Of a DNA stretch of 64,000 bases, positions 2,977 through 49,875 are shown one piece after another; within the stretch, counting starts at the first letter, position 1; every line of letters starts with the position of its first letter. Below the pieces are notes generated by a model. It was given only the letters and a program-made list of their open reading frames with translations. It was not told where the DNA came from and made no database searches. This DNA is from Candidatus Hydrogenedentota bacterium. GTDB lineage: Bacteria > Hydrogenedentota > Hydrogenedentia > Hydrogenedentales > SLHB01. The DNA lies in assembly GCA_020848835.1 (NCBI GenBank), contig JADLHJ010000054.1:97916-161915 (forward strand), written 5' to 3'. The position numbers and the translations under genes were made by a program.

Positions 2977-2988
2977 AGGGAGAGTGCG

Positions 2989-12224: not shown

Positions 12225-12718
12225 TTGAGCTGGCCCTCCAAAGGGATGTATCGCCGCAACCGCCACCGCACCAATGCTGGCGCCCCGACAACATCCGCGT
12301 TTGATACTACCGCCCAAGTTCACATCGATAGCTTTTGCTAACTGCACCACCATCCGTCCGGCGACCGCAGAGAATAATCAAGTCGAGTTGTAAAACATCT
12401 TGTCCCCCAGCGCCGTGATTGGGGTCCGTGTTACGGAAGAGGCACATTAAAATCGTGGACGTTGTTCAAGTAGTGCAGCACTCTCTACAAGTAATTGTGT
12501 AGTCATAGATGATTTCTTGTCAAGATGTAAAAGATTTTGCACGAACAGGTCATTCTCACACATGCTTAAAAAGAATTTTATTCGCTCGCCGATGGAATCC
12601 ACTGTTCACCAGCCGCTGCACTTAGGTTCTCTAAAGGATGGTGACGGGAAGTGCGATCGGCCACGTCGCCTGGATGTTGACTGTCTTGCCATCTCCCCAA
12701 GTCTCGGCGATGGCGAAT

Positions 12719-27676: not shown

Positions 27677-27813
27677 TATTTCGCACGATTGGGCCTTTGG
27701 GGAAAAGCTGTATTTCTGATTTCCTCACAGGCTCGCTACATGAATGTCTTGTAGGGAGAGCGTTATTGGCAACCATCGCACGCTTTGGATGTACAGACGT
27801 AAGAGGAGAGGAC

Positions 27814-30800: not shown

Positions 30801-31776
30801 TACCGTGGACAACGTTGCGCCTACCGCCGCGATAGCCCTGTTGGATCCGAGCCCCACCAATGCGAACGCGGTGCGCTTCAGCGTGCAGTTTAGCGAAAAT
30901 GTCGCGCCATCATTCTCGACAGGGGACCTGACAGTTTCAGGAACCTTGGCGATCGGTGCAACGGTTGCCATGACGGGTTCGGACCCAACCTACACCGTTA
31001 CGGTGACTCCCTCGAATCCAACAGCCGATGGAACTATCGGTCTGACGATTGGATCCGGCATCGCGGACAGCGCAGGAAACGCGTACGCTGGCGGTAGCTC
31101 GCCGAGTTCCTACACAATCGAAAACGTTGGTCCATCTATCTCCATTGGAGCGCCTTCAGCAACCGCGACACGTACGGGCGCGGTTTCATATACGATCACC
31201 TATGGCGGAGCAGACTCAATTGGCCTGCTGGCCTCAAATGTATCTGTCGTTTCAACCGGCACGGCCTCCGGCACCGTCGCAGTTTCCGGGAGCGGGACGA
31301 TCGCCCGAACGGTAACAGTTTCCAGTATTTCCGGCGACGGAACGCTGCGAATCTCTATCGCGCCTGGGACCGCTTCCGATATTGCCGGGAACCTGGCACC
31401 TTCAGCGCCCTCGAGCAGCCCGTTCGACGTAGACAACACTGCGCCGACAATCACAGTAAACGGCTCGCTCATGGAGTACATTGAAGTTGGCACGCCGTAT
31501 ACCGACGCAGGTGCAACGGCGGTCGACAGCAGGGATGGCGACATCACGGCGCAAATCACCACAACCGGTGCCGTGAATTGCAACGTAGAGGGTGCACACT
31601 TTCTAACGTATAACGTTTCGGACAATGTGGGAAACGCAGCCGCGCCTGTTCAACGCACGGTAGTCGTTGTTCCACCGCTTCCCGATGACCTCCCTGTGGA
31701 CACGCGCTTCGTTTTGATCGCGCTTCTGCTAGTTGGAGTTGCGCAGGCGGGTCGACGCATTCGTCAGAGCCCGTAG
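27814..31776 (+). CDS. secreted M64 (IgA peptidase-like) metallopeptidase with Ig-like repeats, DUF5011-like domain and C-terminal anchor
   Basis: LVILGDGYT, IIHEFGHTFAGLADEY (28954), NCLMK, FCPVC. Start uncertain: TTG 27814 after AGGAGAGG, ATG 27862, or track start 27697. Confidence 0.88.
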   Translation: MRFETREFQHGSQIRHMNHPYHIGRFQLGFLAGPPATAKSSFVICLIALHFLSLCSFAGIAGHASSRRTTPDDHRQYWQLVIGYDETAMTILSAAEIAPMKKQVITPGLDGAVGIVPYSVDWLDASGKSLYTGSLDLPIGQRLFLGPDMPCKGLVPKQSVIVVRIEGPAAKANFTSLRLRRSAGKALDYLSPDMPSSLTKHEVVLPVGKIKRIGEKEAPPPGPLSVAKIQDTGSDTNRLVLVILGDGYTAANLSAGSFTTAAQNALTAFGNKSPWDVLFNGTNVYRVDVESNQQGADREDGQNGTLVDTYFNSTFWTSGIDRLLTIDFTGRSRAISAADAYVGVGVWDYLFVLVNSTVYGGSGGSIGVSSIHASASEVIIHEFGHTFAGLADEYTTAYPGYPAGDGEPNVDFDYALANLKWSAWVDTGTPLPTPDTSTYNGVVGAFQGARYLTTGIYRPTRNCLMKALGTAFCPVCKEAHVVDYFDIVSLADTLQPTAGTTVDVPPAGTLVSVSPLSIPGLTYQWSIDGSPLGGATGSSVTVYATDLPTQAATLQLNISYPTSLVRSTSFAENYSWTLNKIGDITAPTAGITLIDSNPTNANAVQFGVQFSENVSPTFTAADIAVAGTLAAGASTAVSGTDPNYVITITPANPTADGTIGITIGSAVSDAAGNPYAGGSSPTVYAIDNAAPTISIGSPSSAITRTGPISYPVAYGNADAVTLSTSDVSLLTTGTATGTVSVSGSGTTTRTVTIASISGNGTLAIAIAAGTASDLAGNMAPAPASSTTFSVDNIAPTATVTLEDANPTNADSVHFGVRFSENVAPTFTAADLTVTGSLASGATTSISGTDPDYTVTVTPANPATDGTIGLTVGSGITDGAGNAYTGGSAPAIYTIENIGPTISIGSPSASVTRSGPVSYAVTYGGADSITLSPSAVSLIATGTASGTISVSGSGTVTRTVTISSIAGNGTLRISIAAGTAADNAANLAPAALASTPFTVDNVAPTAAIALLDPSPTNANAVRFSVQFSENVAPSFSTGDLTVSGTLAIGATVAMTGSDPTYTVTVTPSNPTADGTIGLTIGSGIADSAGNAYAGGSSPSSYTIENVGPSISIGAPSATATRTGAVSYTITYGGADSIGLLASNVSVVSTGTASGTVAVSGSGTIARTVTVSSISGDGTLRISIAPGTASDIAGNLAPSAPSSSPFDVDNTAPTITVNGSLMEYIEVGTPYTDAGATAVDSRDGDITAQITTTGAVNCNVEGAHFLTYNVSDNVGNAAAPVQRTVVVVPPLPDDLPVDTRFVLIALLLVGVAQAGRRIRQSP
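29560..31431 (+). repeat. three tandem 624-bp (208-aa) A+B Ig-like units
   Basis: Units start at 29560, 30184 and 30808 (D(I/N)xAPTA..PTNA..V.F.V.FSENV ... TISIG.PS...TRTG...D.AGN.AP). Confidence 0.9.
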
Positions 31777-32126: not shown

Positions 32127-33521
32127 GTGCGTATCATGAATCGGCTTTATCTGAGGACTGCTTGTGGGATCTCTTTGGTCATCGCTCTCTGGATCTGTCT
32201 TCATCAAGTGCGCGCGGAAGTACGTGCCCAAACTTGGACTGAACCGCGAACATTGGTATTTGCAGGTCAAGTACCCCCTGACGACTTTGGCGAAAACCCG
32301 AACGTCAGCTTAGACCCAAATAACAAGATGAATTGGGAGGATGAACCGCCTGCCTCAACCCCTTCGCTGCCGTTGAACTACGGCCGCTGGTCGGGTCCGT
32401 ACAACAACATGTATGGAAAGCGCTGGGTAAGCACCGTCAATAAGTGGTTTCGGCAGGGCACTGCGGCGGGACTTTGGCAGGACCGCTTTCGGAGTTTCGA
32501 CAAGGGTCATTCCAGTATCCCGCTAGCGCTATTCCCACAGCTTGAGGCAGAAGACCCTGTGACCGCATTTGGACCGTCGTTATCAAATGTCTTGGTACAA
32601 CACGTCACATTTGGCGTGCAGTCCTACGGTATGGGCGGACAAAGTGTTGCCGAATCTTTGTCTCGAAGTAGCCTTCGTGCGTACTACGAAAACGGGACGT
32701 TTAGGCGCGAGGGCCATCAGCACTTTCGAATGGTCCTGTATGAGCGAAACTTTCTCTTCGTCGCCCCAGCGGTAGACTCATATGGCGTTCGTGGTGACCA
32801 GTTTACATTTCTGAGTCCATTCTACTTGCATTCGGTGGGGCGTTCAGGAAGCGATGCGCGGCTTCTGCAACCCATCTTGCTGGCAGCGGCCGCTTTGCCT
32901 CCGAAACTGAAGACGCGCATGCTACGGTGCGGCGTCTATGTTCCAACCCTCATGCAGTTGTTCAAGGGCGCGATTGCCGGCGATATCTCCTCGGCCAATG
33001 CACACCTACCTGCATATTCGCTTCCAGACGAAGCCAAGGAAGGTAACACAGGACGGACACCTTTCCTTGACCGCCTCATTACCACCGCACATGATCTTAC
33101 GCATATACCGCCAGTCTGTCGCTTTGCAATAGAGCCAGTTTATGTGAAAGCGACTGGAAAGTTTCCGTATGGCGGCAAGGCATACTGGGAGAAAACACCG
33201 TATGCCTTTTTCGGCGCGCTCCGCGAAGGTCAGGAATTTCAGCTTGAAATCGACCTTCGCGACAGTTGGGTCGACGACGGATTTTCACTGAAAGATTTCT
33301 ACACCGCGGTGTTGCGCGGCCCGGGTACCATCGAGAAACAGAATAGTGAAGGCTCGAGATTGCGCATACATGTTCCATGGACTGTGATGGACATGGATAA
33401 AGACTATCGCACCGACATTCTGCTGCTGGTCTCTGACGGGACCTATTTTTCTGCGCCCGCGTACATCTCTATACGCCATGTCCACAAGCTCGATCCGATG
33501 GTACTTGGTTTGCGCCGATAA
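32127..33521 (+). CDS. secreted hypothetical protein
   Basis: N-terminal signal; D.GHS..FPQL, S.GRSGSD, PTLMQL segments resemble a conserved hypothetical family (recalled, not searched); start may be 32136. Confidence 0.75.
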   Translation: MRIMNRLYLRTACGISLVIALWICLHQVRAEVRAQTWTEPRTLVFAGQVPPDDFGENPNVSLDPNNKMNWEDEPPASTPSLPLNYGRWSGPYNNMYGKRWVSTVNKWFRQGTAAGLWQDRFRSFDKGHSSIPLALFPQLEAEDPVTAFGPSLSNVLVQHVTFGVQSYGMGGQSVAESLSRSSLRAYYENGTFRREGHQHFRMVLYERNFLFVAPAVDSYGVRGDQFTFLSPFYLHSVGRSGSDARLLQPILLAAAALPPKLKTRMLRCGVYVPTLMQLFKGAIAGDISSANAHLPAYSLPDEAKEGNTGRTPFLDRLITTAHDLTHIPPVCRFAIEPVYVKATGKFPYGGKAYWEKTPYAFFGALREGQEFQLEIDLRDSWVDDGFSLKDFYTAVLRGPGTIEKQNSEGSRLRIHVPWTVMDMDKDYRTDILLLVSDGTYFSAPAYISIRHVHKLDPMVLGLRR

Positions 33522-33537: not shown

Positions 33538-36500
33538 CTACTGGGCGCTGTCCCCCCGTGCAAGTGACGAGTCGCGGCCCTCTTTCGTTGTTTCAGTACC
33601 CGTCTTGGCGTTTTGGATTTCGCGAAGTTCGGTGCGCCAGTGAAGTTCGCTCGGTTCCAAGTCAATTGCCTGAGTCAGGTACTTAATCGCGGAGGCTTGA
33701 TCACCCGTCGCGCCGTACGCTCTCGCCAGCGTCGCATAACATCGCGCATTCTTGGGCTCGGTAGTGACCGCCTTTTGGGCTAGGCTGACCGCCTCGTCCA
33801 ATCTCTTGCCTTGCTCGCAAAACGAACGTGCCAATCCAATTTGCGCGGCGGTCAGATTGGCGTCACGTTCAAGCGCATTCTGATAGTTCACTTCTGCAAG
33901 GGCATAATCCCGTTCCCCTTCGGCAATCGATGCGAGCGCAACAAACGCTTCAGGCTTGGCTGCCGGAAGCCGCACAACCGTCTCCAATTCCTCACGCGCT
34001 TTGGCACGATATTTTTCGTTCCCGGTTCGCATCGCCAGCGCCTGCCAGCTTAGAGCAAGCACCGTCCGCTCTTCTGTTGCGTTTTGCGGTATGAACGGCG
34101 TAACTCGCTCAAGCCAACCAGCGGAGTCCATTTCGTTTGGAAGTCTGAACGTCGCAATACACGCCCACAACATTCGAGACGCGGTGGAACTCTGTAGCTT
34201 TGGCGACAGCAACGAAGCGACGTCGTCTACACGGTTGGCCATCAACAGGCTTTGCGTTCGCGCTGCTTCACTTTGCCCATCCGCATCCTGACTAGTTTTG
34301 TCAGCTACGAGATAGGGCATGGTCGCGCGATTCCTACCCAATAAACGGCCAATGCGTTGCTTCGCCGCTACGTCGAGCAGATCACCTGCGTTGGGCAACG
34401 ATCGAGAACGTCGGAACGCCTCGCCAGCCGCTTCAAATGATTCGACCCACCGGCCCGCCGCAGCGAAGGATTCGGATGCCAGCTCGGCCGGTTCCACATC
34501 GGTCGGAAAATCCAACTGGGCTTGTGCAGCAACTTCGGCGGCTTCATCATGCTTACCCGCTTGCCCCAAAAGCCGAACGAGCAGCATCCTCACCGGCAAG
34601 TAGGTAGGATGGGCTTGAATGAGTTGCCGGAATTGTTCGACCCTGCGGAGGGGGTCATCCTGTGGTGTTTCATTCAATACTTCGAGCGTTTCTTTTGCTG
34701 CATCGAATCGACCAGCATCCTCCACGCCAGATATCATGATGGGCATCGCCAAAAAGCGCGTCACCAACTCCTCGAAGAGCGCGCGATCCCGCCGCATAGC
34801 GCGAAAGAGCGCTTCGCTCGGACAAGCGGCAAGGGCCTCTTCAGCGAGGTCCAGCGCGGCGCTCACATTCCCTGAACGCATCAGAAACGCCAAATACTTT
34901 CGCCACGCGTTGGGGTTTGCCTTGTTACCCTCGATCGCAGCCCGAAATAGTCTATCGGCGTCGTCTGCATTGCCGTAATAGCCATGGAACTCCGCCTCGA
35001 GGACCTCACGCGCTCCGGAATCGAGTTGCAATTGCCCCAGAACGTCGAAAGCAGCCTTCGCTTCGTCCAGTTTTCCCAGTGACCCAAATAAGTCTAGTGC
35101 AAAAACCACTTCTGCGATGGATGGATTGTCTTCAATCAGCGTCTTGGCGATCTCTTGCGCATTCGGAAGATCGTCGTTCATCCGATACAGCTCTGCCAAC
35201 AACAGATCCGCCGGTGGACCATCTCCACGTTTCGGATTCGCCGCAAGCAGCTTTTCGATTGCCGCGGCATAGCGACCCTCTTGCGCCGCGACCATTGCGG
35301 AAACCTCGTGAGACGCGCGATCAGAAACTTCACCGTTCGCCAGTATCGCCGCCAATTCATCGTACGCTCTCGATATATCGCCGCGGCTGTACAATATTCG
35401 CGCCAAATCGAGTCGCGCACTATTGTTCTTGGGCGCCAATCGAACGGCGTTTTGCAGATTGGAGAGTGCGCCTTCCGAATTGCCGATCCGTTCAAGTGCC
35501 GTGGCGATGAGCAAGTATTGCTTGATGTCGAGAAATCCTGCTGCGGTGGAAGTGTCCTGTAACAACACCACTGCTTCGGCCGCGGCCTTTTCTGAATGAT
35601 CGTTTTGGAGTAGCCAACGCGCTCGCGCGGTCCGCCACGTGTAACCAGACTCGCCCGTCAACTCTTTCAATGCGCTGATCGAACTGTCTATAAGCGCGGC
35701 ATTCTCCCACGCCGCCTCGGATTCCAACACGCGCGTGAGTACCATCGCATTCTTCGGTTCAACACTCGTGACATAATCCGACCAGGCCAAAGCAGCCTCG
35801 GCGGATCCACTTCGTTCGAGGTACTGCGCAATCGCAAACTTCCAATCCGGTCCCTCCCCCGCTACCTTGGCTGCCCCAGTTAGAAGTTCCAATCCACGCT
35901 GGGGATCTCCTTCCGCATTCGCAGCGAGCGCCTGTTCCAGCGCAAGATTAGGAGTAGAGCCGAATGAGCGCAAAGCGTACGCGTAGCATGCATCGGTCTG
36001 CCCGAGGCTGAAATCTCTGCTGATTCGAGCTAGACGAAGCACCGTAGGTTCGGGCAGTGCCTCCTCTCCCGCCAAAGCTGCACCGAGTTTCTCCCCCGCC
36101 AAAGTGGTGTCGCCACGTCGAGCAAGAAACTCTATCAGTAAGGGAAGCGTTCTAGGTTCCATGGGCCGGATGGATTGAATCTTCTCCACAAGGTCCCATA
36201 GCCGGCTCCGCTCCGCGTCCGATAATAGTTCGAGGTCAACGCCAGGGATTTCCGCCGCCGCTGCTGCGAGATAAACGTCTTGAGGTGAACGAAATAGCGC
36301 TTGCTGCGCCAGCGCAGTTGCGGCCGTCACGTTGCCGCGCGCTGAAAGTACTTGGGCGGCAAGCAACAGCGGTTCACCCCAAAGGGGGGACATCTGCGCC
36401 GCAAGGCTGCAGGTCCGCAGCGCCAGGTCGCTCTCACCGTTTCGCTCGTATGCCCTCCCCAAGTAGTAGGTGAAATACGGATTCCGCCCATCCAACTCGG

Positions 36501-37659
36501 CGTACTTCTTGCAGTTTTCAACGAGATCCCGCGCCGGAATTTCTTTATCTAGGTAGAACACGCTTAGAATTTCCCGCCAGGCAATCGCAGCTCGGTCGTC
36601 GCGCTTTTCCAGGTGCTCAACGACTCCTTTAACCTGCTCCCACTTCTCAAGCTTTACGTGCGTCAAGCCAAGGATTCCTAACATCTCGGAGTCGCCAACA
36701 TCCGCTGGTACCTGATCCATCAATTTCACCACTGCGCGAGTGTTTCCCGACTCGAAAAGCCGGCGCATTAGAAGTCGTTTCAGTTCTATCTCCGAAAATC
36801 GTCCAGCGGATTTTGCGAGCATATCGAGGTTCAGACGCTGAAGCTCGAATCTATCGCCGGAGAATACAGAGAGGCGTGACAATAGGTTGTCGATGAGTTC
36901 AACAGTTTTCGTATTTGTAGAGTTTGTAACGGGGATCGCGGCGGCCCGCTTCGTCCAGTCCACCGTCTCGTCACGCTTTCCGGCGAACTCATGGGCAATG
37001 GCTTGCACGATGTGATATTCGGCAGAACCCCGGTCAAATCCAGGCACTGTGTCTGGATACCTAAGAATCTCGTCCACCGGCTTTTTCATTGACCGAATCA
37101 CGGAAAGCGCAAGAATGTGATTCTCCACGTCAGCAGGTTCCAATGCCGCGACTTTCTTGGCATCTCCTAACGCCGCATCATACTTTTGCATTCGCATGTA
37201 GGCTTTTGCTCTTGCCTTCAACGCGTCAACATCGTCAGGCTTTTTTGCCAGTATGTCCTCTGCCAGGGAGATAGTCTCGACGCCGTAGCCGATGTCGGAG
37301 TACACACCGACCAGCTCACGCTGAGCATCGCTGTTGTCAGGTTGTATACTGAGAATCTGGCGAAGATGGGAAATAGTCTGCTCAAAGTGCTTTCCATTTG
37401 GAAGGGGGACCTCGCGGCGGGCCTTCGCATATTCAAGCATTGCTTCTACGTCGGTATCCAACCCAAATCGCTGCAAGTAGCGTCCAATTTGGTCCAACGC
37501 GACCTCATGGTCACCAACCTTCGCCGCATCCATTCCACGCTGACGACACTCTAGCGCTCGCTGCTTTAATACATATTGGCGCACGAGCAAGGCTGCCCCC
37601 CCCGCAGCGAGGAGAACTACGAAAGCACTTGCGACGATTATGAGACGACGATAACGCAC
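33538..37659 (-). CDS. giant N-anchored TPR protein
   Basis: GTG start, N-terminal TM, TPR repeats throughout 1373 aa; last gene of the - strand operon. Confidence 0.87.
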   Translation of the reverse strand: MRYRRLIIVASAFVVLLAAGGAALLVRQYVLKQRALECRQRGMDAAKVGDHEVALDQIGRYLQRFGLDTDVEAMLEYAKARREVPLPNGKHFEQTISHLRQILSIQPDNSDAQRELVGVYSDIGYGVETISLAEDILAKKPDDVDALKARAKAYMRMQKYDAALGDAKKVAALEPADVENHILALSVIRSMKKPVDEILRYPDTVPGFDRGSAEYHIVQAIAHEFAGKRDETVDWTKRAAAIPVTNSTNTKTVELIDNLLSRLSVFSGDRFELQRLNLDMLAKSAGRFSEIELKRLLMRRLFESGNTRAVVKLMDQVPADVGDSEMLGILGLTHVKLEKWEQVKGVVEHLEKRDDRAAIAWREILSVFYLDKEIPARDLVENCKKYAELDGRNPYFTYYLGRAYERNGESDLALRTCSLAAQMSPLWGEPLLLAAQVLSARGNVTAATALAQQALFRSPQDVYLAAAAAEIPGVDLELLSDAERSRLWDLVEKIQSIRPMEPRTLPLLIEFLARRGDTTLAGEKLGAALAGEEALPEPTVLRLARISRDFSLGQTDACYAYALRSFGSTPNLALEQALAANAEGDPQRGLELLTGAAKVAGEGPDWKFAIAQYLERSGSAEAALAWSDYVTSVEPKNAMVLTRVLESEAAWENAALIDSSISALKELTGESGYTWRTARARWLLQNDHSEKAAAEAVVLLQDTSTAAGFLDIKQYLLIATALERIGNSEGALSNLQNAVRLAPKNNSARLDLARILYSRGDISRAYDELAAILANGEVSDRASHEVSAMVAAQEGRYAAAIEKLLAANPKRGDGPPADLLLAELYRMNDDLPNAQEIAKTLIEDNPSIAEVVFALDLFGSLGKLDEAKAAFDVLGQLQLDSGAREVLEAEFHGYYGNADDADRLFRAAIEGNKANPNAWRKYLAFLMRSGNVSAALDLAEEALAACPSEALFRAMRRDRALFEELVTRFLAMPIMISGVEDAGRFDAAKETLEVLNETPQDDPLRRVEQFRQLIQAHPTYLPVRMLLVRLLGQAGKHDEAAEVAAQAQLDFPTDVEPAELASESFAAAGRWVESFEAAGEAFRRSRSLPNAGDLLDVAAKQRIGRLLGRNRATMPYLVADKTSQDADGQSEAARTQSLLMANRVDDVASLLSPKLQSSTASRMLWACIATFRLPNEMDSAGWLERVTPFIPQNATEERTVLALSWQALAMRTGNEKYRAKAREELETVVRLPAAKPEAFVALASIAEGERDYALAEVNYQNALERDANLTAAQIGLARSFCEQGKRLDEAVSLAQKAVTTEPKNARCYATLARAYGATGDQASAIKYLTQAIDLEPSELHWRTELREIQNAKTGTETTKEGRDSSLARGDSAQ

Positions 37660-37678: not shown

Positions 37679-40108
37679 TTAACTTAGCGTGGCGGGAAGA
37701 GTACCCACCCCATATTTTGACAGGTGTGATGACAGCCAGACGGCTCTGGCGAGCGGGCCAAACTTGGCATACTCTTCTGGACAATTCGAAAAATGCTGCC
37801 CGTCGGCGTCCGCGTCTTCTGGGTGCAAGTCACGGTACCCACCTACCGACACTGAGGTCACTGAGAAAACCGAACGAATAATGTCTTCCTTGCGTGCCCG
37901 GTTAAAAATCACCCCCATCGGAAGCGCGTTGAGCAATTCAAGATGGTGCATCGCCTGCCGGATGACACCGCTCGGATCATCCCGCGAAACCACCATGATG
38001 ACACCATCCGTGCTGGACGCGAAAATGGATGAATCGTGGGGACCCGGTACTGGACCGGTATCCACCAAAATGACGTCGTATCCTGGTCTAAGTCGCTCTA
38101 TAAGTGCTCGAACAGACGCTGGCGAAAGCGAGCTAGTCGGTGCGTGCCCGTTACCAAACGTCGGCATGACATGCAGGTTCGTGATGCCAATATCTGCAAC
38201 ACAGTTCTCCACATTTTCACCCCGCAGTGCATCAGCCAGTCCGAGCCCGTATTCACTCTGCAATGCCAGGCCGTCTTCAAGGTCCTGTTCATTGATATAC
38301 CCCAGACGCAGCAGACTTTGTCCAAGGCGTATGTTGGAATCTTGAGCAAGCGCAAGAGCCCGTGTGAATTCCGCGTCTGTAATAACGTTGTACTCTCGAA
38401 ATACGTGTCCAAGCTTTCTCCGGCCCACAGCGTCCGTGCTTCGCGTTAATCCTCGTCCGATTAGGTCACCATCGATAAGGAGCGTTCGTGCGCCTGCGGA
38501 GGCAAATGATATGCCCATCGCAAGCGCAACACTGGTCTTACCGGTCTGACTTGTGCCTCCTGTGATTGTGAGTGCAAGACCACTGTTCGACACGATCTGC
38601 GTTTGGAGCATCATCCGAATGCTGTGCACGCAGTGAGCGGCACGGGCAATGTCGGCGGCATCAGACAATTCAATGGACAATTCAGGGAGTGCGCCAAGAA
38701 GTCTCGGGCGAACGGCTTCCGCATCCACAATATCGCGGATCCTCGGATTTAAGAGACCAAGCAACATCACGAACCCGATTCCTAAGCCACTACCCGCCAA
38801 CCCGCCAAGTATCGTAACTTGGGCTTTCCGGCTGGAGTTGGAAGGTTCGATTGGCATAACCGCATCGTTTACTACAATTACACGCCCTTTCAAATTCTGG
38901 GTAAGTAGCGATTCCGTGGTAATTTGTTCTAATCGCGATTTCACCAAATTCAAGTTGTCCTGAATTCGGGACTTCTCCGCCTGTTGTTTCCCGACCTCCA
39001 AATTCTTCTGTCCGAGTTCAAGAACTCTAGGCTTGGCATCGTCCATCAGCTTCTGCAGCTGTCGCACTCGCATCTCGGCGCGCTGCGGATCCAGAATTGC
39101 AATGCGTCCGGATACCGGGTCACCCGCCGTCAACGTGGCGCCCCCGACAGGGCTTTTGCGATAGACCTCGGCATACTTTTCGATCTCTTGCTCTTGCGTC
39201 TTTAACTGCTGAACGGCAGTTCGATACTCCTTGTTGCTTTCGGTACCGACGTAACGAGCGGCGTATTGGTCGACGAGTCGTTGCAGGCGTCCCTTCTCAT
39301 CGACGAGTTGCTGCATGCGGGGGTCTGTTGCGGCGATCTGTTCGACAGTTAGTGATGATGCATCATCCGATTCCTTCGTGCTGGACTTTCCTAATGCCTG
39401 TGCCGTAGCCAGGTCAATTTTCGCGCTTTCTAATTCTATTTCGAGTTCCTGAAGCCTTGAGAGTGCAAAGGCATGCATCTCGCCAAGATTCTCGCTGCCA
39501 AATTCAGTTGCAATATTAGAAATTTTTGTTTCAATATCTACCATTTGGATATTCAAATCGTTGATTCTCTTCTCCAAAGCCTCTAACCGTTCACCGCTTG
39601 TCGTCGTGTCAATTTCGCTATACAAGATGAGATATGCATCAACAAGAGACTTCGCCGCCGCTTGAGCAAGTTTGGGGATCTTGTTTTCGCACGAAACGAA
39701 AATCAGCTGACTTCCCTTGGGTGAAGTCACGGTTATGTTCTTCATAAACTCCACAATATCTTCCAGCGAGGCCTTTCCGCCCGCATTCTTCCAGGTCTCG
39801 CTGCCAATCGCTTCCTCGACGACGCGGCGGCTTTTCACCAGCGAAATCTGCGTTTGGATGAACGAATCGAACATTGGCATCATGGCGTTTTGCTCGTTTT
39901 CGTACAGCACTTTCGGAAGGACCGGGGCGACTCGAATTATCGTCTCGCTCGCGTATTCCGGTTGTATTGCAAAATAGCCAACGGCTGCACCCATCCCACC
40001 CAAAAAGACGCCGAGTACTGTCGCGAGCAGGTAGCGTCCGCGTAACAGCCTGTGTACCAAGAGCAGTGGGTTTTGGTCTGATTGTGGGGCAGGATTCTTT
40101 GACAGCAT
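37679..40108 (-). CDS. wzc: Wzc-like polysaccharide co-polymerase / BY-kinase with MshEN-like insertion
   Basis: TM-coiled coil-TM; Walker A GGTSQTGKTS, A' LLIDGDL, B ILVDTGP; ATG 40108 (the track start 40228 overlaps epsI). Confidence 0.88.
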   Translation of the reverse strand: MLSKNPAPQSDQNPLLLVHRLLRGRYLLATVLGVFLGGMGAAVGYFAIQPEYASETIIRVAPVLPKVLYENEQNAMMPMFDSFIQTQISLVKSRRVVEEAIGSETWKNAGGKASLEDIVEFMKNITVTSPKGSQLIFVSCENKIPKLAQAAAKSLVDAYLILYSEIDTTTSGERLEALEKRINDLNIQMVDIETKISNIATEFGSENLGEMHAFALSRLQELEIELESAKIDLATAQALGKSSTKESDDASSLTVEQIAATDPRMQQLVDEKGRLQRLVDQYAARYVGTESNKEYRTAVQQLKTQEQEIEKYAEVYRKSPVGGATLTAGDPVSGRIAILDPQRAEMRVRQLQKLMDDAKPRVLELGQKNLEVGKQQAEKSRIQDNLNLVKSRLEQITTESLLTQNLKGRVIVVNDAVMPIEPSNSSRKAQVTILGGLAGSGLGIGFVMLLGLLNPRIRDIVDAEAVRPRLLGALPELSIELSDAADIARAAHCVHSIRMMLQTQIVSNSGLALTITGGTSQTGKTSVALAMGISFASAGARTLLIDGDLIGRGLTRSTDAVGRRKLGHVFREYNVITDAEFTRALALAQDSNIRLGQSLLRLGYINEQDLEDGLALQSEYGLGLADALRGENVENCVADIGITNLHVMPTFGNGHAPTSSLSPASVRALIERLRPGYDVILVDTGPVPGPHDSSIFASSTDGVIMVVSRDDPSGVIRQAMHHLELLNALPMGVIFNRARKEDIIRSVFSVTSVSVGGYRDLHPEDADADGQHFSNCPEEYAKFGPLARAVWLSSHLSKYGVGTLPATLS
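38258..38416 (-). other. MshEN-like c-di-GMP-binding domain inside Wzc
   Basis: KLGHVFREYNVITDAEFTRALALA (24 aa) + QDSNI (5 aa) + RLGQSLLRLGYINEQDLEDGLALQ (24 aa). Confidence 0.75.
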
Positions 40109-40127
40109 ATTACAACGCTCGCTCTGG

Positions 40128-40823
40128 TTACGCTTCGGGTACCGATTCGATTCCAGACTCAACCACTGAAATCCAAGGCAACGCTGCCTTGAGCAAAAAC
40201 TCATACTCAACGTTTCGCTCTGCATCACTTAGTGCAGCATCCACAATAAACTGAATACTCGCGGCGCCGAGATACTTTGACGACCCCTCGCGCGCTGCAA
40301 TTTCCAACGAACTCATGTCGGGCGACGTTTTTCGGTTCGGAAGTACTGTGAAATGAAGCACTGCCAACTGCGCACTGTCCCCCGCTGACTCATAAGTAAA
40401 TCCATATTCGGTGGCGTCTACCGCACTCCCGTCCACTGCAAGCGAGACAGGTCGGGCGGTGCGCTGCGTCCATCCCTGGTTGTGATAGCACACGGGAGGA
40501 TAATGACCTAGCAGGCTCCTCACGTCGCTGCCGTGAACGATCAGCAATGTCGCCGACCGCCCTGTTTCGAGATTGCGATAGGTTCTACTTAACGATACAT
40601 TCGCATCGAGTATGCGAAGCGCACCCGCGGAGATCTCGCGGTCAACGCCGACCCAAGGACCAAGACCATAGGGAACGCTGGCGATCGCTTCGCGGATTCT
40701 GGCGTGATATGCGGCAACGCCGGCAGGCACTTGCTCACGATGGACTCTTCCAAGATACACCCCTGTTAGCATTAGCAGGAGGATCAGGGGTGTTACTATC
40801 TTAAACATAGCAATTGCTCTCAA
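40128..40823 (-). CDS. epsI: second exosortase-associated EpsI-like protein
   Basis: N-terminal TM, LSRTY, LGHYPPVCYHNQGW; directly follows the exosortase-like fusion. Confidence 0.82.
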   Translation of the reverse strand: MRAIAMFKIVTPLILLLMLTGVYLGRVHREQVPAGVAAYHARIREAIASVPYGLGPWVGVDREISAGALRILDANVSLSRTYRNLETGRSATLLIVHGSDVRSLLGHYPPVCYHNQGWTQRTARPVSLAVDGSAVDATEYGFTYESAGDSAQLAVLHFTVLPNRKTSPDMSSLEIAAREGSSKYLGAASIQFIVDAALSDAERNVEYEFLLKAALPWISVVESGIESVPEA

Positions 40824-40838
40824 AATATTCGTGCCGAC

Positions 40839-43454
40839 CTAGCCCGCAGAAGCTGGGCTGGCCGCCTCCTCAATTCCGGACTTCGCGGTAAAGTCTGAAC
40901 CCGCGATCCATCTGGCTACGTGCACCATTGCTGCTAGTCCACATACCACCGCGGGTAGCGTGGCAACATCACTCAGTCGGCTTACCCGATTTGCAGACTC
41001 AAGGGACAGATAACCATATATCGCCGCAGTGGGGATTAGCCGGACTGTGTTCAGCGCAAACGCCAGGACTGGACTTGTGAGGACCAGGAAGACTCTCATT
41101 CGCGTACCTACCCGCGCACTGAACGCAAAGGTCAGGCAGACCAGCGTCAAGGCGAATATGATTCCGACTCCGCCAAACGCTTGCGCGACGTCAACCGATA
41201 CACCGTTAATCTGCATGACCCTACTATCCAAACTCACAGACTCACCAACGAAATGCAAGACAACAGCAGTGGAGCGTGCCGTGAAATCTTGTATTGGCTG
41301 GAGAATTCGCAACTGAATGAGTCCTGGTATGGGTATGGCGAACATCAATACGAGAAGCGCTGGCCATAGTCGCCGTGGAAGCTCCGTACCAAGCACAGAG
41401 ACGGCACAAGCTATCGTGATGGTGACTGCACCCATATACCAAAACGATTGAATGAGCTGCGCATCCCCGATCGAGTATAGAATCCAACCCGCCGCGGCGA
41501 TTATTGGGGCGAATATCGTTCCTGACCTTCGTGATAAAAGCGCGCTCTCCCTCCTCGTCCATATCAACCAGGCGGCGGCAGGAATCGCGATCAGACCGAA
41601 GCTGGACTGCAGATCCCGCGTAAGCAAACGCCAGACGTCCCAATATGCATCAGAGGTTATCCACATCGACGCAAGTACCAATGCACACGCGGCGATAAAA
41701 TAGCGTGGCCGCCAATACTGCCTTGCATCGAGCTGCCTCGTTCCAGGATTCTGTGGCTTTACCCGTGCGGGCTTTAAGACCGCGTCGCGACCCGCCCGGG
41801 TCGGTACTGCTTCTTTTCTAAAGCCAACACCAGCCTGTTGAACTCCCTCAACCACAGATGCCGCCTTCACAGACCACGTTTCCTGCTTGACACGCGCACG
41901 GCGCGGAGCGGGATCACCGGGATTCTCGAGCACCCGTTGTATATGCGCGACAAATTGCTGTGCGTCCTCTGCGATCTCGACGTGCGCTTCATACTTAGAC
42001 AGCTCATCAAACGGCGTGCTTACAATCGGGCGGCCAACAGCGAGGTATTCCTTTAGTTTCACGGGATTACATGCCTTGATCCACGCATTTTGATTCCACG
42101 GCATAATCAGCACATCGCACGCCGCCATATATGCTGCCACTTCGGTGTATGGTTTGCGGCCAAGCATGTACACATTCGATAAATCGCACCATTCCTCTGG
42201 CAAAGAGCAGCCACCGACTAGCACAAATGAGCAATTCGGCATCGCGCGAGCAACACTTAGAAAAAGCTCAGGATCAAACGTGTGCGCATCGATTCCGCCG
42301 ACAAATCCAATTCTTGGTCTGGGAATGTCCCGCACGTCATTGGGTTCGGTCGTAGCGCCACGCCCCGCGGCCTCGAACTGATCGAAATCAACCCCATGAT
42401 CAACGAATAACGCCGACCGGCATTCGGAAGTTTCGCTTTCATACACAGAGGTAGAACAGAAAAGCGTTACGTCTGCGCTCTGCTTAAGCGTCAAATCGTA
42501 AGCGCGAATGCGAGCGGGATCGACGCCGGGATAATGCTCAAAACGGTCCGTGCGCTGATACACGAGCCCCGCGGCAGGTATCTTCTCGAAGACTTCTGCG
42601 GCCGGTGGGCATGCGACCCACAACAATGGGGAGGAAATGCCCATGTATTCCGCCGCGTCGCGGACTTGCTCGATTAATAGGGCCCTTGCCAAGGAGGTCT
42701 GGTGGAACTTGGGGATGGATACGGGACTCAATACGGCAAAGTTTTCGGAAACTACCTTGAGTCCTCTCCCCCAACTCTTTACTTTGCGAGCTACCCGCCC
42801 AATAAAAACGCGACCTTCACCGACACGAGGAGTACGCATGCCTATGGAGTTCACATACACCACCGGCATGTCCCGGCTAAGTTCCCGCATCATTTGGACG
42901 TCATAGTGACCGCGGTTGTGGTACCACCAGTCCACGCCACCAAAACAAACGATGCCATCAACTTTGCCTTTGCGTGGCCGTTCGATGAAGTCGGAAATCG
43001 CTCTGCACAATTCTGGCGACGCCTGTCGTGAAATCCTGTCCGTAGCCTTGAGTCGATTCAGTTCGGTATCGAGACGAAGCGCCAGTTCGTGCTCGTCCCA
43101 GGCAACGGATATAAGTCCACGGTCGCCAAATTGACGTGCCGTCGCGACTTGGTGATCATTTCGCGTCTCGCGAAGTACGCCGCGACGAGGCATGACAACG
43201 ATTGGCTTACCCAATTCGAGCGCCGTCAATATGGTGCCCATACCAGCATGGGCAACAATTACGTCAGCCGCCTCAACGAGTTCGCGAAGCTTCTCGGGAG
43301 CGACAAACTTCTCGAACTCAATGTGTTTCGGGAGGTATGCTGTATTCCCCACCTGCGCAAAGATACCGGTCGCATTACGCTCGCCAGCCCACTGATCGAC
43401 TGCTGCCACCAATCGGTCAAATGGCATCTGAGCGCCTACAGTAACCAGGATCAT
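40839..43454 (-). CDS. triple fusion: PssE/Alg13-like GT28-C + GT4-type glycosyltransferase + degenerate exosortase-like domain
   Basis: aa1-158 MILVTVGAQMPFDRL..HAGMGT..RNDHQ; aa~165-545 PRIGFVGG..PVKLKEYLAVGRPIVST; aa580-871 about 8 TM with NTVR but AFGG in place of the xCxG motif. Confidence 0.88.
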   Translation of the reverse strand: MILVTVGAQMPFDRLVAAVDQWAGERNATGIFAQVGNTAYLPKHIEFEKFVAPEKLRELVEAADVIVAHAGMGTILTALELGKPIVVMPRRGVLRETRNDHQVATARQFGDRGLISVAWDEHELALRLDTELNRLKATDRISRQASPELCRAISDFIERPRKGKVDGIVCFGGVDWWYHNRGHYDVQMMRELSRDMPVVYVNSIGMRTPRVGEGRVFIGRVARKVKSWGRGLKVVSENFAVLSPVSIPKFHQTSLARALLIEQVRDAAEYMGISSPLLWVACPPAAEVFEKIPAAGLVYQRTDRFEHYPGVDPARIRAYDLTLKQSADVTLFCSTSVYESETSECRSALFVDHGVDFDQFEAAGRGATTEPNDVRDIPRPRIGFVGGIDAHTFDPELFLSVARAMPNCSFVLVGGCSLPEEWCDLSNVYMLGRKPYTEVAAYMAACDVLIMPWNQNAWIKACNPVKLKEYLAVGRPIVSTPFDELSKYEAHVEIAEDAQQFVAHIQRVLENPGDPAPRRARVKQETWSVKAASVVEGVQQAGVGFRKEAVPTRAGRDAVLKPARVKPQNPGTRQLDARQYWRPRYFIAACALVLASMWITSDAYWDVWRLLTRDLQSSFGLIAIPAAAWLIWTRRESALLSRRSGTIFAPIIAAAGWILYSIGDAQLIQSFWYMGAVTITIACAVSVLGTELPRRLWPALLVLMFAIPIPGLIQLRILQPIQDFTARSTAVVLHFVGESVSLDSRVMQINGVSVDVAQAFGGVGIIFALTLVCLTFAFSARVGTRMRVFLVLTSPVLAFALNTVRLIPTAAIYGYLSLESANRVSRLSDVATLPAVVCGLAAMVHVARWIAGSDFTAKSGIEEAASPASAG

Positions 43455-45780: not shown

Positions 45781-46197
45781 AACACTGCCTCGTGAGCTTC
45801 ACGAATCCCTAGTCTCTTTCTTTCCACGTGCTCCTCGAAATTCCCGAATCAACGTTGGATTCAATATGGGGGTTGCCTTTCTCTCGAATACGGTACCGTG
45901 CCATTTACAGTGACAAAACTTGTCGCAAGTAGGCTCGATGTGCACATAAAGGTACTAATAGGCATCTTGAGCGCGGTTTTAATTTCAATCCAAATCCTTT
46001 AGCAATAGACGGTTATGGGCATTCGCGCCGCACGGCGTGATAATTGCTCTTCTCCCTTTGGCATACTATGGTACCGCCACGGCAATTGGCGGGCGAGTGT
46101 CCCGTTTGCTCGGGAGTAGGCTATGTGTCGCCTCCTCCAAACGGATTTCATCAAGTGGACGACAAGCGAAAATTTAGTTCGGCTGGAGTACAGAGCC

Positions 46198-48792
46198 ATG
46201 ATCCGTCTGCGAAACAGCTCTCTTGTCTACACCACCGCCGTGGTTCTGCTGGCCGTGGTATCCGGCTGCCCGTGGGCGAGTACGCCGAAGGCCATCAAAT
46301 CGGATAGCGACCATGATCGCGCAACCAAATTCTCCGCGACTGCTTCGACCAACGCCTCTGCTGAACTACCAGCGATAGTATCAGAGGCTCGCATAAAAGT
46401 GCCGACGGCAATCAACGCTCCCTTCCACTCAACCGTCCTCGCTTCAGACAGTACGCAAGAAAAGGGAGCCGCCGGACGAGGCAGGTCGCGTGGCTTAAGC
46501 TCGGGCCCGGACACAACGCCACCAACCGTGGTGATCGGTTCACCCTCTCCTACCAGCACGGCCACAGGGCCGGTCACGTACCTGGTTTCCTATAGCGGAG
46601 CCGACTCCATTACCCTACGAAAAAGGGACGTGACACTGACGACCACCGGAACCGCCGCAGGTAGCATCACGGTATCCGAATCGGGAGCAAAAAGCCGCAC
46701 TATCGCGATATCGAACATCACTGGGAACGGTACCTTGGGGATATCGATTGCCCCCGGTACCGCCGTCGATGCCGCAGGCAACATTGCTACAGCAGCAGGT
46801 CCGAGCACAACAGTCCAAGTCGAGAATCCAGCCCCGACACTAGCCATCGGCGAACCGTCGGACATCCTAACCAACACCGGCCCCGTATCGTTCACTGTTA
46901 CATACACAAACGCCAGCGCGGTATCGCTCGCGGAACAGGACATTACGTTGAGCAGTGACGAAGGCGTAACGGGTTCCGTCACTGTGACCGGCACAGGAAC
47001 GACTGAACGCACCGTTACCGTCGACAACTTGACCGGGATCGGAATGTTTGCCATTTCCGTTGCGGCTGGAACAGCGGGCAATACGGGAGGCGCGACAGCG
47101 CTTGGTGCTGGCCCCAGCGCATCGGTTGATGTGCTTGGCCCGCAACCCACGCTAGAACCTGGCCCTGGCTTCGACGGCCCCACGCCAGAACCTCCGGCCA
47201 TTGGCACCGGCCCAGGCTCGGACGCCAAAGCAATCGCCCGTTGGGACGTCGTCCCCTACCAGACCTTCGACGGCATATTCCAAATCGGCGTAGTGGCGTT
47301 TCACATTAACGGCATCGACCGCGTCGAATTCTCCCTCGAAGGCGGCCCCTGGACCGCCGCCATGCCTGTGATGACACGCAACCCGCTCACCGACGTCGTA
47401 GAGTATTGGGTCAATCTCGACGCCAGTCTGCTACCCGACGGACCCATTGAGATAAGGGCCATCGCCTATCCTACGGTCGGCATTCCAAGGGTCTTGGACG
47501 GACCAATGAACCGCTCCACACTGCGCGGGAACGGCGAATTTTCACTCTGTCTAAACTCAAACGGTAATGGCACTCAAAACGGCCCAATACGTTATGTTTC
47601 AGTGAATGGCGATGATGTTTCAGGAACCGGCTCTCCCCAAGCCCCTTTTCAAACTATCTTTCGCGCAGCGCATTCCATGGTTAGCGGCACTGGTAGTGCA
47701 GATGGGGGCATTGTATACTTGTATCCAGGAGAGTATCTATATGGAACTGAATCTGGACAGATTCGCAATCATAATCGCTGGCTCACGATTATGCCATATC
47801 CGGGTACACCCCAAGGTTCAGCAAAAATAATTGGTTACGGGACACGGCTTGGACTGCGAACAGCATTGGTTCACTTGAAAGATTTAGAGATTCGCCCCTC
47901 GATTCAGGAATTCGAATTACTCGGCTCGGACGATTCTGATGATTATCTTTGGATTGACAGGTGTAGCTTGATCGGCCATAATCGAATGGGGTGGTGGTCC
48001 CAAAGAACCTCTTGGTCTGGACAATTCATGACCGACACCACGGTGAAAGATTTCAGGGATGGAATTGTATATCATGATTTCGCACGCAATTGCAGAGTAC
48101 AAACGATAGCAAGTGACGCATATACGGGCACTCCGGTCGTCATAAACTGCACGGCAGAAGACGTAGATAGGCAGGGCGATACCGATATTCACCCCGACAT
48201 ATACCAAGTCCATATGGATGGAAGCAGCTTAGAAAATGGCGTAGTTTATGGCCTTAGAGCACACAATTTTGTTGCGCAGGGAATCTTCGCGGCGGGCGTG
48301 CCGCTTGTACAAGATACCGCGTTTGTGAATATTATTATAGATTTTGCAGATAACGATCTTACGCCTCTCCTCAGTCAGTGGAACGTTACCAGCGAACATG
48401 TTTTGCTTTGGTATATCACTTTCCACAATCAAGTGTTTTTGTGGCGTCATGACGTGTCGCAAATTAATAACTTCTCTATTAAAGGCTGTGTCTTTGAAAA
48501 ACTTCAAGTCAATGCTGGCGCTACCTTTGACGACAACTGGTTTCAATCAAACCACTACATAGATGCAGCTTCATGGCTGGCAATAACTCCTGGCTATGAT
48601 GCCTCTACGGGTTACCCAGATTATATGAACGTCCAGCAGCACGACTTTCGTCCCCGGAAATCATCGCCACTTGCACAAAGGATAGCGGAGCCTAACATTC
48701 TCGTTGACGCAATGGGTGCGACACGATCTCGATTGACATCTGTGGGAGCGCTCGCCGCTGAGGGCGAGTGCAATGACCCGCCTTCCAAATGA
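46198..48792 (+). CDS. lipoprotein with two Ig-like modules and a C-terminal beta-helix-like (pectin-lyase-like) domain
   Basis: Lipobox VVSG-C; Ig modules 46510..47133; RYVSVNGDDVSGTGSPQAPFQTI..A..GGIVYLYPGEY is a typical beta-helix N-terminus; ATG 46198 after GGAG. Confidence 0.75.
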   Translation: MIRLRNSSLVYTTAVVLLAVVSGCPWASTPKAIKSDSDHDRATKFSATASTNASAELPAIVSEARIKVPTAINAPFHSTVLASDSTQEKGAAGRGRSRGLSSGPDTTPPTVVIGSPSPTSTATGPVTYLVSYSGADSITLRKRDVTLTTTGTAAGSITVSESGAKSRTIAISNITGNGTLGISIAPGTAVDAAGNIATAAGPSTTVQVENPAPTLAIGEPSDILTNTGPVSFTVTYTNASAVSLAEQDITLSSDEGVTGSVTVTGTGTTERTVTVDNLTGIGMFAISVAAGTAGNTGGATALGAGPSASVDVLGPQPTLEPGPGFDGPTPEPPAIGTGPGSDAKAIARWDVVPYQTFDGIFQIGVVAFHINGIDRVEFSLEGGPWTAAMPVMTRNPLTDVVEYWVNLDASLLPDGPIEIRAIAYPTVGIPRVLDGPMNRSTLRGNGEFSLCLNSNGNGTQNGPIRYVSVNGDDVSGTGSPQAPFQTIFRAAHSMVSGTGSADGGIVYLYPGEYLYGTESGQIRNHNRWLTIMPYPGTPQGSAKIIGYGTRLGLRTALVHLKDLEIRPSIQEFELLGSDDSDDYLWIDRCSLIGHNRMGWWSQRTSWSGQFMTDTTVKDFRDGIVYHDFARNCRVQTIASDAYTGTPVVINCTAEDVDRQGDTDIHPDIYQVHMDGSSLENGVVYGLRAHNFVAQGIFAAGVPLVQDTAFVNIIIDFADNDLTPLLSQWNVTSEHVLLWYITFHNQVFLWRHDVSQINNFSIKGCVFEKLQVNAGATFDDNWFQSNHYIDAASWLAITPGYDASTGYPDYMNVQQHDFRPRKSSPLAQRIAEPNILVDAMGATRSRLTSVGALAAEGECNDPPSK

Positions 48793-49675: not shown

Positions 49676-49875
49676 TTCAGAATTTCTGAGGGGCGTGCGT
49701 GCGCAATGCAGCTTCCAGCATAAAGCCGTTAAGTATATTTTACTCGCATACCTTACAGATAAGACAGTCGATGGCTGATTATTTATAGAATGGATATCCA
49801 CTCCTTTAGTGTGCATTAAAACAATTGGCCACATTATTCCATGCCACTCAGTGCAAGCAAACGATTAAACCCAAG

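Follow-up and report, generated by a model that had tools for sequence, protein, structure and literature searches.

A 53-residue MshEN_N homologue nested in the ATPase domain of a Wzc-like polysaccharide co-polymerase, a candidate cyclic di-GMP input in Hydrogenedentota

The co-polymerase gene and its ATPase domain

The 64,000-nucleotide stretch of a Candidatus Hydrogenedentota genome analysed here (contig JADLHJ010000054.1, positions 97,916 to 161,915; hereafter the window) carries on its minus strand, at 37679-40108 (stop codon included), the gene of a polysaccharide co-polymerase whose cytoplasmic ATPase domain holds a 53-residue insert. This insert (38258-38416, minus strand) is a homologue of the N-terminal subdomain (MshEN_N) of MshEN, a receptor module for cyclic di-GMP (c-di-GMP). 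The open reading frame (ORF) that contains the gene extends over 37679-40228 (minus strand); because the product, of 809 amino acids, is elsewhere called from Met41 of this ORF (P0029, 100% identical), the gene was placed at 37679-40108. Plus-strand ORFs over the same bases were rejected as shadow ORFs of the minus-strand gene.

The product is laid out as a transmembrane (TM) helix, a periplasmic coiled-coil domain, a second TM helix and a cytoplasmic P-loop ATPase domain. The TM helices were read by eye from the translation: predicted helix 1 (YLLATVLGVFLGGMGAAVGYFAI; 39965-40033) lies where the match to Wzz begins, and predicted helix 2 (VTILGGLAGSGLGIGFVMLLGLL; 38750-38818), a glycine-rich hydrophobic segment kept in relatives, precedes the cytoplasmic domain. 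Pfam recognized Wzz in the N-terminal part, at its cut-off (25.5 bits), and a CbiA/ParA-type P-loop in the C-terminal part; among NCBIfam models, TIGR03007 (the chain-length determinant of XrtA systems) matched residues 130-529 with an E-value of 2e-16, below its cut-off, and TIGR01007 and TIGR03018 were matched as well. The cytoplasmic domain (37682-38701; 340 residues including the insert) was modelled by AlphaFold2 with a mean predicted local distance difference test score (pLDDT) of 87.6 and a predicted template modelling score (pTM) of 0.85, and its closest folds in the Protein Data Bank (PDB), as found by Foldseek, are CapB, Wzc, Etk and BceF; CapB and Etk were also aligned by phmmer. 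The structural statements on the co-polymerase and its insert rest on such predicted models. Given the family matches and the confident domain model, the host is a PCP-2a-like polysaccharide co-polymerase, with two TM helices around a helical periplasmic part and a fused P-loop domain of the bacterial tyrosine kinase (BY-kinase) fold seen in Wzc and CapB.

The nucleotide-binding motifs of this domain are intact. Walker A (GGTSQTGKTS, 38531-38560, with Lys524 in the 809-residue numbering) aligns to the P-loops of CapB and Etk; the Walker A' strand (LLIDGD, 38465-38482) aligns to 'lividgdmrk' of CapB and 'lfidadlrrgy' of Etk; and Walker B (DVILVDTGP, 38051-38077) aligns to 'fviidtppv' and 'lvivdtppm', respectively. 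Across 56 relatives (numbering of the 340-residue domain), G54 and K55 of Walker A, both aspartates of Walker A' (D77 and D79) and D214 of Walker B are invariant, with T56, S57, G216 and P217 nearly so. As all of these motifs, with both aspartates of Walker A', are in place, ATP binding and hydrolysis are expected, and the host domain is, to judge from its motifs, probably an active ATPase.

It is, however, no canonical tyrosine autokinase. The preliminary description of this locus had spoken of a Wzc kinase domain, of which the Wzc/CapB fold and the Walker motifs stand and the canonical kinase does not. At the site of the tyrosine-rich tail of canonical BY-kinases lies a serine-rich linker (SVFSVTSVSVGGYRD; 37829-37873), of which residues 282-290 have pLDDT below 50, followed by a conserved C-terminal helix with the motif FGPLARAVW (37736-37762; block pLDDT 93). 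Within this motif F314, G315, P316 and V321 are invariant in the five closest sequences, and G315, P316 and V321 nearly so among the 56 relatives. Tyrosines in the tail are few and unconserved, and several relatives have none. The ExxRxxR motif of Etk aligns with HxxHxxR, and DxDxR reads DGDLI, with isoleucine in place of the arginine, a pattern found family-wide (isoleucine or valine at the last position). Missing are thus the tail and the arginines with which canonical tyrosine autokinases form rings and trans-phosphorylate. Moreover, the autokinase models all scored far below their cut-offs: 68.7 against 108 bits for TIGR01007, 45.5 against 231 for TIGR03018, 58.7 against 313.8 for TIGR03029 and 27 against 1068 for the Wzc model NF008568. 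That the host might all the same be a true Wzc-type tyrosine autokinase, with c-di-GMP tuning its autophosphorylation, is suggested by the resemblance of fold and Walker motifs to Wzc, CapB and Etk, by three scattered tyrosines in the last 60 residues of the window copy and by the name 'polysaccharide biosynthesis tyrosine autokinase' that PGAP gave to the orthologue in Fontivita pretiosa (WP_428937818.1); elsewhere the family goes by 'hypothetical protein', 'AAA family ATPase', 'Mrp family ATPase', 'ExoP' or 'tyrosine autokinase'. The missing tyrosine cluster, the two altered motifs and the model scores make such a kinase improbable, and PCP-2/BY-pseudokinase systems that work independently of phosphorylation are documented (PMC12004946).

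The serine-rich linker and the FGPLxxAV helix (37829-37873 and 37736-37762, minus strand) recur in family members with and without the MshEN insert. An insert that arose as a replacement for the tyrosine tail was considered and rejected, as insert-less relatives of the same clade lack the tail too; since these relatives share the same traits, loss of the tyrosine system predates the insert or is independent of it.

An MshEN_N homologue between Walker A' and Walker B

The insert occupies residues 565-617 of the 809, and its exact translation is KLGHVFREYNVITDAEFTRALALAQDSNIRLGQSLLRLGYINEQDLEDGLALQ. It lies between TLLIDGD and DVILVDTGP, as the preliminary description had it. When phmmer was run with the insert intact, the match to CapB was split in two around it and Etk gave no individually significant stretch; once the 53 residues were removed in silico, a single contiguous block was aligned for either protein (CapB 42-219, Etk 20-215), and the E-values improved from 2e-9 to 1e-10 and from 2e-6 to 2e-9, respectively. 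This alignment against proteins of the CapB/Wzc fold, proposed beforehand as a check on the loop character of the insert, thus bore it out. Nature supplies the same comparison: relatives of about 740 residues from Tepidisphaeraceae read GLTSRMNVSAPEGVLEAI at the exact insertion point, with no insert and with all other family features in common. In the domain model, the order of elements is Walker A' strand (73-77), short helix (84-89), insert and helix at 155-159. RRGY574 of Etk pairs with IGRGL of the window protein, and the insert begins about 10 residues further on; a regulatory network of Tyr574, His576 and Arg614 has been described for Etk, in one subgroup of BY-kinases (PMC4007543), and Tyr574 is known as a site of regulation in proteobacterial BY-kinases. 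The insert therefore stands as a separate unit in a surface loop that links Walker A' to Walker B in a domain of the Wzc/CapB fold.

Its relationship to MshEN_N was recognized by profiles of several kinds. The NCBIfam model NF053729 ('cyclic di-GMP-binding domain-containing protein, MshE-related'; 53 positions, cut-off 38 bits) was covered from position 1 to 53 in the full co-polymerase, with an E-value of 1.2e-8 and 34.6 bits, and scored 36.1 bits on the 340-residue domain and 57.9 bits (E-value 6e-16, two stretches summed) on the insert alone. The same model matched 51 of the 56 relatives at an E-value of 1e-3 or better, the best being 4e-16. The insert further matched the MshEN regions of the NCBIfam models for NfrB and PRK15489 glycosyltransferases, as well as positions 4-59 of the EpsG model TIGR03029, of which positions 157-247 were matched by the ATPase part. 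A search with Pfam PF05157 (T2SSE_N), which had been suggested as a check, failed: no match was found in the co-polymerase, the isolated insert or any of the 56 relatives. The model is silent because it spans the whole T2SSE_N domain, while the insert corresponds to the N-subdomain only; it is the 53-position NF053729 that matches instead.

Comparison with proteins of known structure gave the same answer. For the single 53-mer, the top sequence match in the PDB was MshE of Vibrio cholerae (5HTL), residues 9-59, without a gap and at an E-value of 0.003. A profile built from 12 inserts (only sequences that retain Gly3 were taken, from the two phyla with named carriers, 32-60% identical to the window copy) matched MshE residues 6-62 without gaps at 2.1e-14 and PilF, in four stretches, at 4.7e-19; several PilB proteins were matched too, yet the non-binder XpsE reached only 0.37. 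With an E-value of 2e-14 between the family profile and MshE, chance resemblance to MshEN_N was rejected. In the domain model the insert forms helices at 97-103, 109-122, 126-132 and 138-150, a predicted four-helix bundle with block pLDDT of 89-98. When the insert was modelled by itself (pLDDT 77), its closest match by Foldseek was c-di-GMP-bound MshE (5HTL; root-mean-square deviation 0.6 Å over 54 columns, 31% identity), with GSPII-B of PilF in its c-di-GMP-bound state next, and 16 of the 17 best structural matches are MshEN/GSPII-type N-terminal domains, PilB N-domains complexed with PilZ among them; the Foldseek E-values are weak, owing to the short query. The insert is thus an MshEN_N homologue, a four-helix module, and the MshEN-like identity proposed for it was confirmed by family model, alignment, profile and structural match alike.

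The module has the MshEN layout of two 24-residue motifs around a five-residue spacer, and the gapless register with MshE 9-59 shows the 24+5+24 geometry to be exact, as proposed. Motif I (KLGHVFREYNVITDAEFTRALALA) lies at 38345-38416, the spacer QDSNI at 38330-38344 and motif II (RLGQSLLRLGYINEQDLEDGLALQ) at 38258-38329, all on the minus strand. Motif positions were judged against the published consensus (PMC5013675) and its extended form (PMC11731258). All six key contacts, (R/K/L)1, L2, G3, L17, L21 and Q24, are present in motif II as R, L, G, L, L and Q, and the strict consensus is met throughout except for tyrosine at position 11, a deviation that had been noticed before. Motif I keeps K1, L2, G3 and L21 and has phenylalanine for L17, alanine for Q24, asparagine for G10 and arginine at core position 7. 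Of the degeneracy earlier ascribed to it (R to K, G to N, Q to A) the three substitutions are indeed there, with Arg7 and Phe17 in addition; lysine at position 1 is no defect, since it binds more tightly in GSPII-B of PilF (PMC11731258).

Conservation of the insert and the case for ligand binding

The co-polymerase family numbers more than 190 proteins. A HMMER scan of 1.84 billion representative sequences returned 1103 proteins at an E-value of 1e-30 or lower. The best 150 of these scored above 400 bits and are mostly about 800 residues long; since the matched span in each protein is as long as that of the profile with its insert columns, the insert is present in at least 150 clusters (50% identity). 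Named carriers belong to Candidatus Hydrogenedentota and to Phycisphaerae (Tepidisphaeraceae and Phycisphaerales), including the cultured Fontivita pretiosa B-254. The nearest named relatives of the window protein are from Hydrogenedentota, at about 48-50% identity, and metagenome proteins reach 59-94%.

The 12 aligned inserts are free of insertions and deletions. Gly3 of both motifs and Leu6 and Gln24 of motif II are invariant in them, and an upstream arginine, Ala20 of motif I, and Gly10 and Leu21 of motif II are nearly so. In a wider alignment of 24 sequences the two Gly3 residues are either kept together (17 sequences) or lost together (7), and Gln24 of motif II is present in all 17 that keep them; joint retention or loss of the pair is what a single shared function predicts. 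The seven sequences without the pair (L014-L019 and L030; for example, L015 9775-10590) form a sub-clade in which motif I is also partly lost, and they look like natural non-binders. Together, the pattern of conserved residues points to ligand binding, with the caveats given below.

The published work on binders and non-binders offers a yardstick for these residues. In MshE, the backbone amides of Gly3 read the Hoogsteen edge of guanine, each guanine is met by a hydrophobic cluster made of Leu2 from one motif and Leu17 and Leu21 from its partner, and Gln24 bonds to ribose and phosphate; the changes G11L and G40I abolish binding in a domain that is still folded, changes of R9 or Q32 cost less than fivefold, and the isolated MshEN_N (residues 1-62) binds at 0.35 µM (PMC5013675). 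The loss of binding in XpsE was ascribed to G11V, I19R, L29R, R38G, G40L, L54H, L58C and Q61V (PMC5013675), and none of these eight changes is found in the window insert. In PilF of Thermus thermophilus, GSPII-B binds at 6 nM with lysine at position 1 and at 150 nM with arginine, GSPII-C binds despite proline at position 1 of motif II, and a single glutamine-to-glutamate change weakens binding about 80- to 160-fold, with only the double change abolishing it (PMC11731258). Measured in this way, Lys1 of motif I in the window copy is acceptable, Leu2, Gly3 and Leu21 agree with the consensus and Phe17 is conservative, while Asn10, Arg7 and Ala24 are real deviations.

Several points weigh against binding. 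Motif I is off consensus at 4 of 11 key positions (Arg7, Asn10, Phe17 and Ala24), and its Gln24 is missing not only in the window copy but throughout the 12-sequence alignment and in four further representatives, with A, S, G, T or I instead. GSPII-A of PilF, which like the window insert combines one good and one degenerate motif, does not bind c-di-GMP, and restoring its consensus was insufficient for rescue; causes beyond the motif are at work (PMC12002112). In the whole-protein context NF053729 stays just under its curated cut-off (34.6-36.1 against 38 bits). In addition, no GGDEF domain was found among the 30 neighbouring products by Pfam and NCBIfam scans, and a back-translation search for GG[DE]EF found no diguanylate cyclase signature in the 64-kb window, which says little about the whole genome. 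Finally, 7 of the 24 relatives still hold the insert after losing both glycines, and the bundle must therefore also have a role independent of ligand.

The last observation leads to the alternative that the MshEN_N-derived bundle does not bind a nucleotide here and acts as a structural or docking element, for example towards the exosortase-glycosyltransferase fusion or the EpsI-like protein encoded nearby, or towards neighbouring protomers. Precedents exist, as the non-binding N-domains of GspE/XpsE bind GspL, and the N-domain of Xanthomonas PilB binds PilZ. The degenerate motif I, the Gln24 missing family-wide, the glycine-less relatives and the behaviour of GSPII-A all fit such a role, as do the PilB-N/PilZ complexes among the structural matches; the high pTM of the domain model may likewise reflect firm packing of the bundle on the core. 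Set against this are the residues that evolution has held fixed: Gly3 of both motifs and Gln24 of motif II, which mainly contact ligand, are invariant across two phyla, and MshE can lose the glycines and its binding and remain folded (PMC5013675). Furthermore, the window copy has escaped every one of the XpsE changes, and the family profile matches binders far better than XpsE. A purely structural bundle is accordingly regarded as possible but on the whole doubtful.

A second alternative is that the module binds another nucleotide messenger, such as cGAMP or some other cyclic dinucleotide, with the asymmetric half-sites matching an asymmetric ligand. Binding of cGAMP by MshEN is reported (PMC5013675), and the combination of one canonical and one altered half-site is consistent across the family. 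Yet the Gly3 positions that read guanine and the hydrophobic clusters are retained in both halves of the site, in keeping with a ligand of two guanines. Nothing that speaks positively for another messenger was found, and the window scans revealed neither a CD-NTase nor any other cyclase; we consider this very unlikely. Binding of c-di-GMP by the window copy is, by its motifs, plausible, with chances that are even or slightly better, and would be likelier for relatives such as L013, L012 or the Fontivita protein.

An exopolysaccharide locus, related systems and biological meaning

The genes around the co-polymerase place it in an exopolysaccharide locus of the exosortase (XrtA/EpsH) type, although the NCBIfam matches concerned are below their cut-offs; the matches of three PEP-CTERM proteins to Pfam are above theirs. 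Upstream lies an EpsI-like exosortase-associated protein (40128-40823, minus strand; NF045609 at an E-value of 1e-6, below cut-off), preceded by an 871-residue fusion (40839-43454, minus strand) of a PssE/Alg13-like glycosyltransferase half (residues 2-130), a GT4/TuaH-like glycosyltransferase (342-523) and an exosortase (587-846), recognized through NF041548, TIGR02602 and TIGR03109, all below their cut-offs. Downstream follows a PrsT-like protein of 1373 residues with tetratricopeptide repeats (TPRs) (33538-37659, minus strand; TIGR02917 at 1e-39, below cut-off). The gene order is thus PssD/Alg14-like gene, PssE-glycosyltransferase-exosortase fusion, EpsI-like gene, co-polymerase and PrsT-like TPR gene. 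The names of exosortase EpsH and of EpsI come from the eps cluster of Methylobacillus.

The order exosortase, EpsI, co-polymerase and TPR protein recurs in other Hydrogenedentes (L002 and L082) and in a metagenome relative (L083): Pfam EpsI is found at the equivalent position in L082 and L083, and a giant TPR protein follows the co-polymerase in synteny in all three. The same glycosyltransferase-exosortase fusion is present in Hydrogenedentes L082 (6611-9232), preceded by a separate Alg14/PssD-like gene. In a locus of Phycisphaerales (L081) an exosortase lies upstream and TPR proteins lie downstream of the co-polymerase. UDP-glucose dehydrogenase, glycosyltransferases, a Wzx-type flippase and three PEP-CTERM proteins are also encoded in the window. 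The best explanation of this setting is that the co-polymerase belongs to an exopolysaccharide pathway linked to exosortase and PEP-CTERM.

Further features of the window were recorded. C-terminal PEP-CTERM signals occur in the plus-strand products at 2953-3804, 5406-6212 and 13861-14769, likely substrates of the exosortase of the window. A fusion of an AMP-binding enzyme with a phosphopantetheine carrier domain (58359-60167, plus strand) has GT2 glycosyltransferases and the Wzx-type flippase alongside (49825-51396, 51412-52356 and 55709-56638), an association that hints at acylation of the polysaccharide. Two more giant TPR proteins, of 1076 and 974 residues, are encoded at 16892-20122 and 21669-24593 (plus strand). 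No outer-membrane polysaccharide export gene (Wza/OPX) was recognized among the scanned products of the window, and for this reason one of four large ORFs (438-889 residues) without a Pfam match, at 46123-48792, 32127-33521 and 53798-55204 (plus strand) and 11037-12353 (minus strand), may serve in that capacity; those at 46123-48792 and 32127-33521 had no NCBIfam match either. Other large products are an 833-residue protein in which a Ser/Thr protein kinase is joined to a WD40 beta-propeller (8332-10833, minus strand) and a 1359-residue protein that combines an M64 (IgA-peptidase-type) metalloprotease domain with several Ig-like domains of bacterial type (27697-31776, plus strand).

The pairing of MshEN_N with an ATPase of this type has a forerunner. 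Beside the MshEN partners of the main text (ATPase, glycosyltransferase, REC, HD-GYP, CheA, CheX, cyclase and Ser/Thr kinase), the supplement of Wang et al. 2016 (Supplementary Table 4) lists 'MshEN_N - AAA_31' in beta- and gamma-proteobacteria, exemplified by EpsG of Methylobacillus sp. (BAC55137), a proposed chain-length-determinant tyrosine kinase (PMC5013675). EpsG of Methylobacillus sp. 12S (TIGR03029), a product of the eps cluster mentioned above, resembles the window protein in that MshEN_N is joined to a P-loop ATPase of the BY-kinase type with a chain-length determinant as partner. However, its module is N-terminal (model positions 4-59) on a stand-alone ATPase of 274 model positions that works with a separate partner, EpsF, whereas in the window protein, which scores far under the TIGR03029 cut-off and has neither the N-terminal module nor the stand-alone ATPase, the module is nested between Walker A' and Walker B of an ATPase fused to its TM and periplasmic part, and the carriers are Hydrogenedentota and Phycisphaerae. 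Since 'MshEN_N - AAA_31' was catalogued for EpsG, the association is known in outline, and the earlier remark that no MshEN had been described within a Wzc applies to the nested form alone: in the literature searched, neither a nested MshEN in a co-polymerase nor a binding test on EpsG was found. The novelty lies in the nesting of the module, in a host that is fused and whose ATPase domain has no tyrosine tail, and in the phyla concerned.

Other relatives differ in what they share. With MshE of V. cholerae (5HTL) and GSPII-B and GSPII-C of T. thermophilus PilF, the insert has in common the gapless 24+5+24 layout, the four-helix bundle (root-mean-square deviations of 0.6-1.2 Å), the conserved Gly3, Leu2, Leu17 and Leu21, Gln24 of motif II and, as in GSPII-B, lysine at position 1; it departs from them in having the N-subdomain only, without MshEN_C/T2SSE_N1, in the family-wide absence of Gln24 from motif I and in a host that is no hexameric ATPase of type II secretion or type IV pili. 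Escherichia coli NfrB, whose NCBIfam name is 'cyclic di-3',5'-guanylate-activated glycosyltransferase', and glycosyltransferases of the PRK15489 type (GT2 plus MshEN) also bear an MshEN module on a polysaccharide-producing machine; there it is C-terminal on the synthase, whereas in the window it is nested in the co-polymerase ATPase, at another step and in a Wzx/Wzy-type pathway. Post-translational action of c-di-GMP is known for synthase-dependent polysaccharide systems, namely BcsA (cellulose), Alg44 (alginate), PelD (Pel) and NfrB. For the co-polymerase of a Wzx/Wzy-type pathway, no direct c-di-GMP receptor was found in the literature searched.

With Wzc, Etk and CapAB (PCP-2a/2b) the window protein shares two TM helices, a helical periplasmic domain, the cytoplasmic P-loop fold and Walker A, A' and B; it differs in the absent tyrosine tail, HxxHxxR, the missing arginine of DxDxR, the serine-rich linker, the FGPLxxAV helix and the 53-residue insert. 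Closer in one respect are EpsV-EcpK of Myxococcus xanthus and HfsA-HfsB of Caulobacter crescentus, in which BY-kinase-fold partners of co-polymerases have no tyrosine-rich tail and must do without cycles of tyrosine phosphorylation (PMC12004946). EcpK and HfsB have lost their Walker motifs too (PMC12004946), whereas the window family keeps them and adds a candidate input for a second messenger.

The reading we favour is that of an active P-loop ATPase co-polymerase with a c-di-GMP sensor in a loop adjacent to the switch region, which couples polymer assembly to the messenger; we put its probability at roughly one half. In such a protein, c-di-GMP would bind to the nested MshEN_N module, with motif II as the full half-site and motif I as a weaker one that lacks glutamine. 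The ligand would shift the conformation of the adjacent switch-like segment and thereby alter the ATPase cycle, the oligomeric state of the co-polymerase or both, so that polymer assembly and export would be coupled post-translationally to the level of c-di-GMP. By analogy with NfrB and with synthases activated by c-di-GMP such as BcsA, the effect might be activation. The homology, fold, position, conservation and surroundings of the module were observed; that this copy binds the ligand, that binding acts on the ATPase, and in which direction it does so, is what we infer. A more far-reaching suggestion, which we make tentatively and hold to be rather unlikely, is that in the clade without tyrosine tail c-di-GMP on the nested MshEN_N took over the role that cycles of tyrosine phosphorylation have in Wzc, gating assembly and disassembly of the ring or the ATPase cycle. 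If so, the family would be a second-messenger-gated subfamily of PCP-2 and the first case of a direct c-di-GMP input to a Wzx/Wzy-type pathway at the co-polymerase step, and the N-terminal arrangement of EpsG and the nested one would be two solutions to one need.

Present annotation overlooks the insert, as no Pfam domain is called for it. It is a natural example of a small module of ligand-binding type nested in a loop of a P-loop ATPase next to the switch region, and as such is useful for understanding and engineering allostery; with Fontivita pretiosa B-254, a cultured carrier makes the idea testable. If binding proves true, the module would define a new class of c-di-GMP effector and a new control point for the production of biofilm matrix, and it would explain how Wzc-like proteins without tyrosine tails are regulated. 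It would also be an output of c-di-GMP in Hydrogenedentota and Phycisphaerae, where signalling has hardly been studied.

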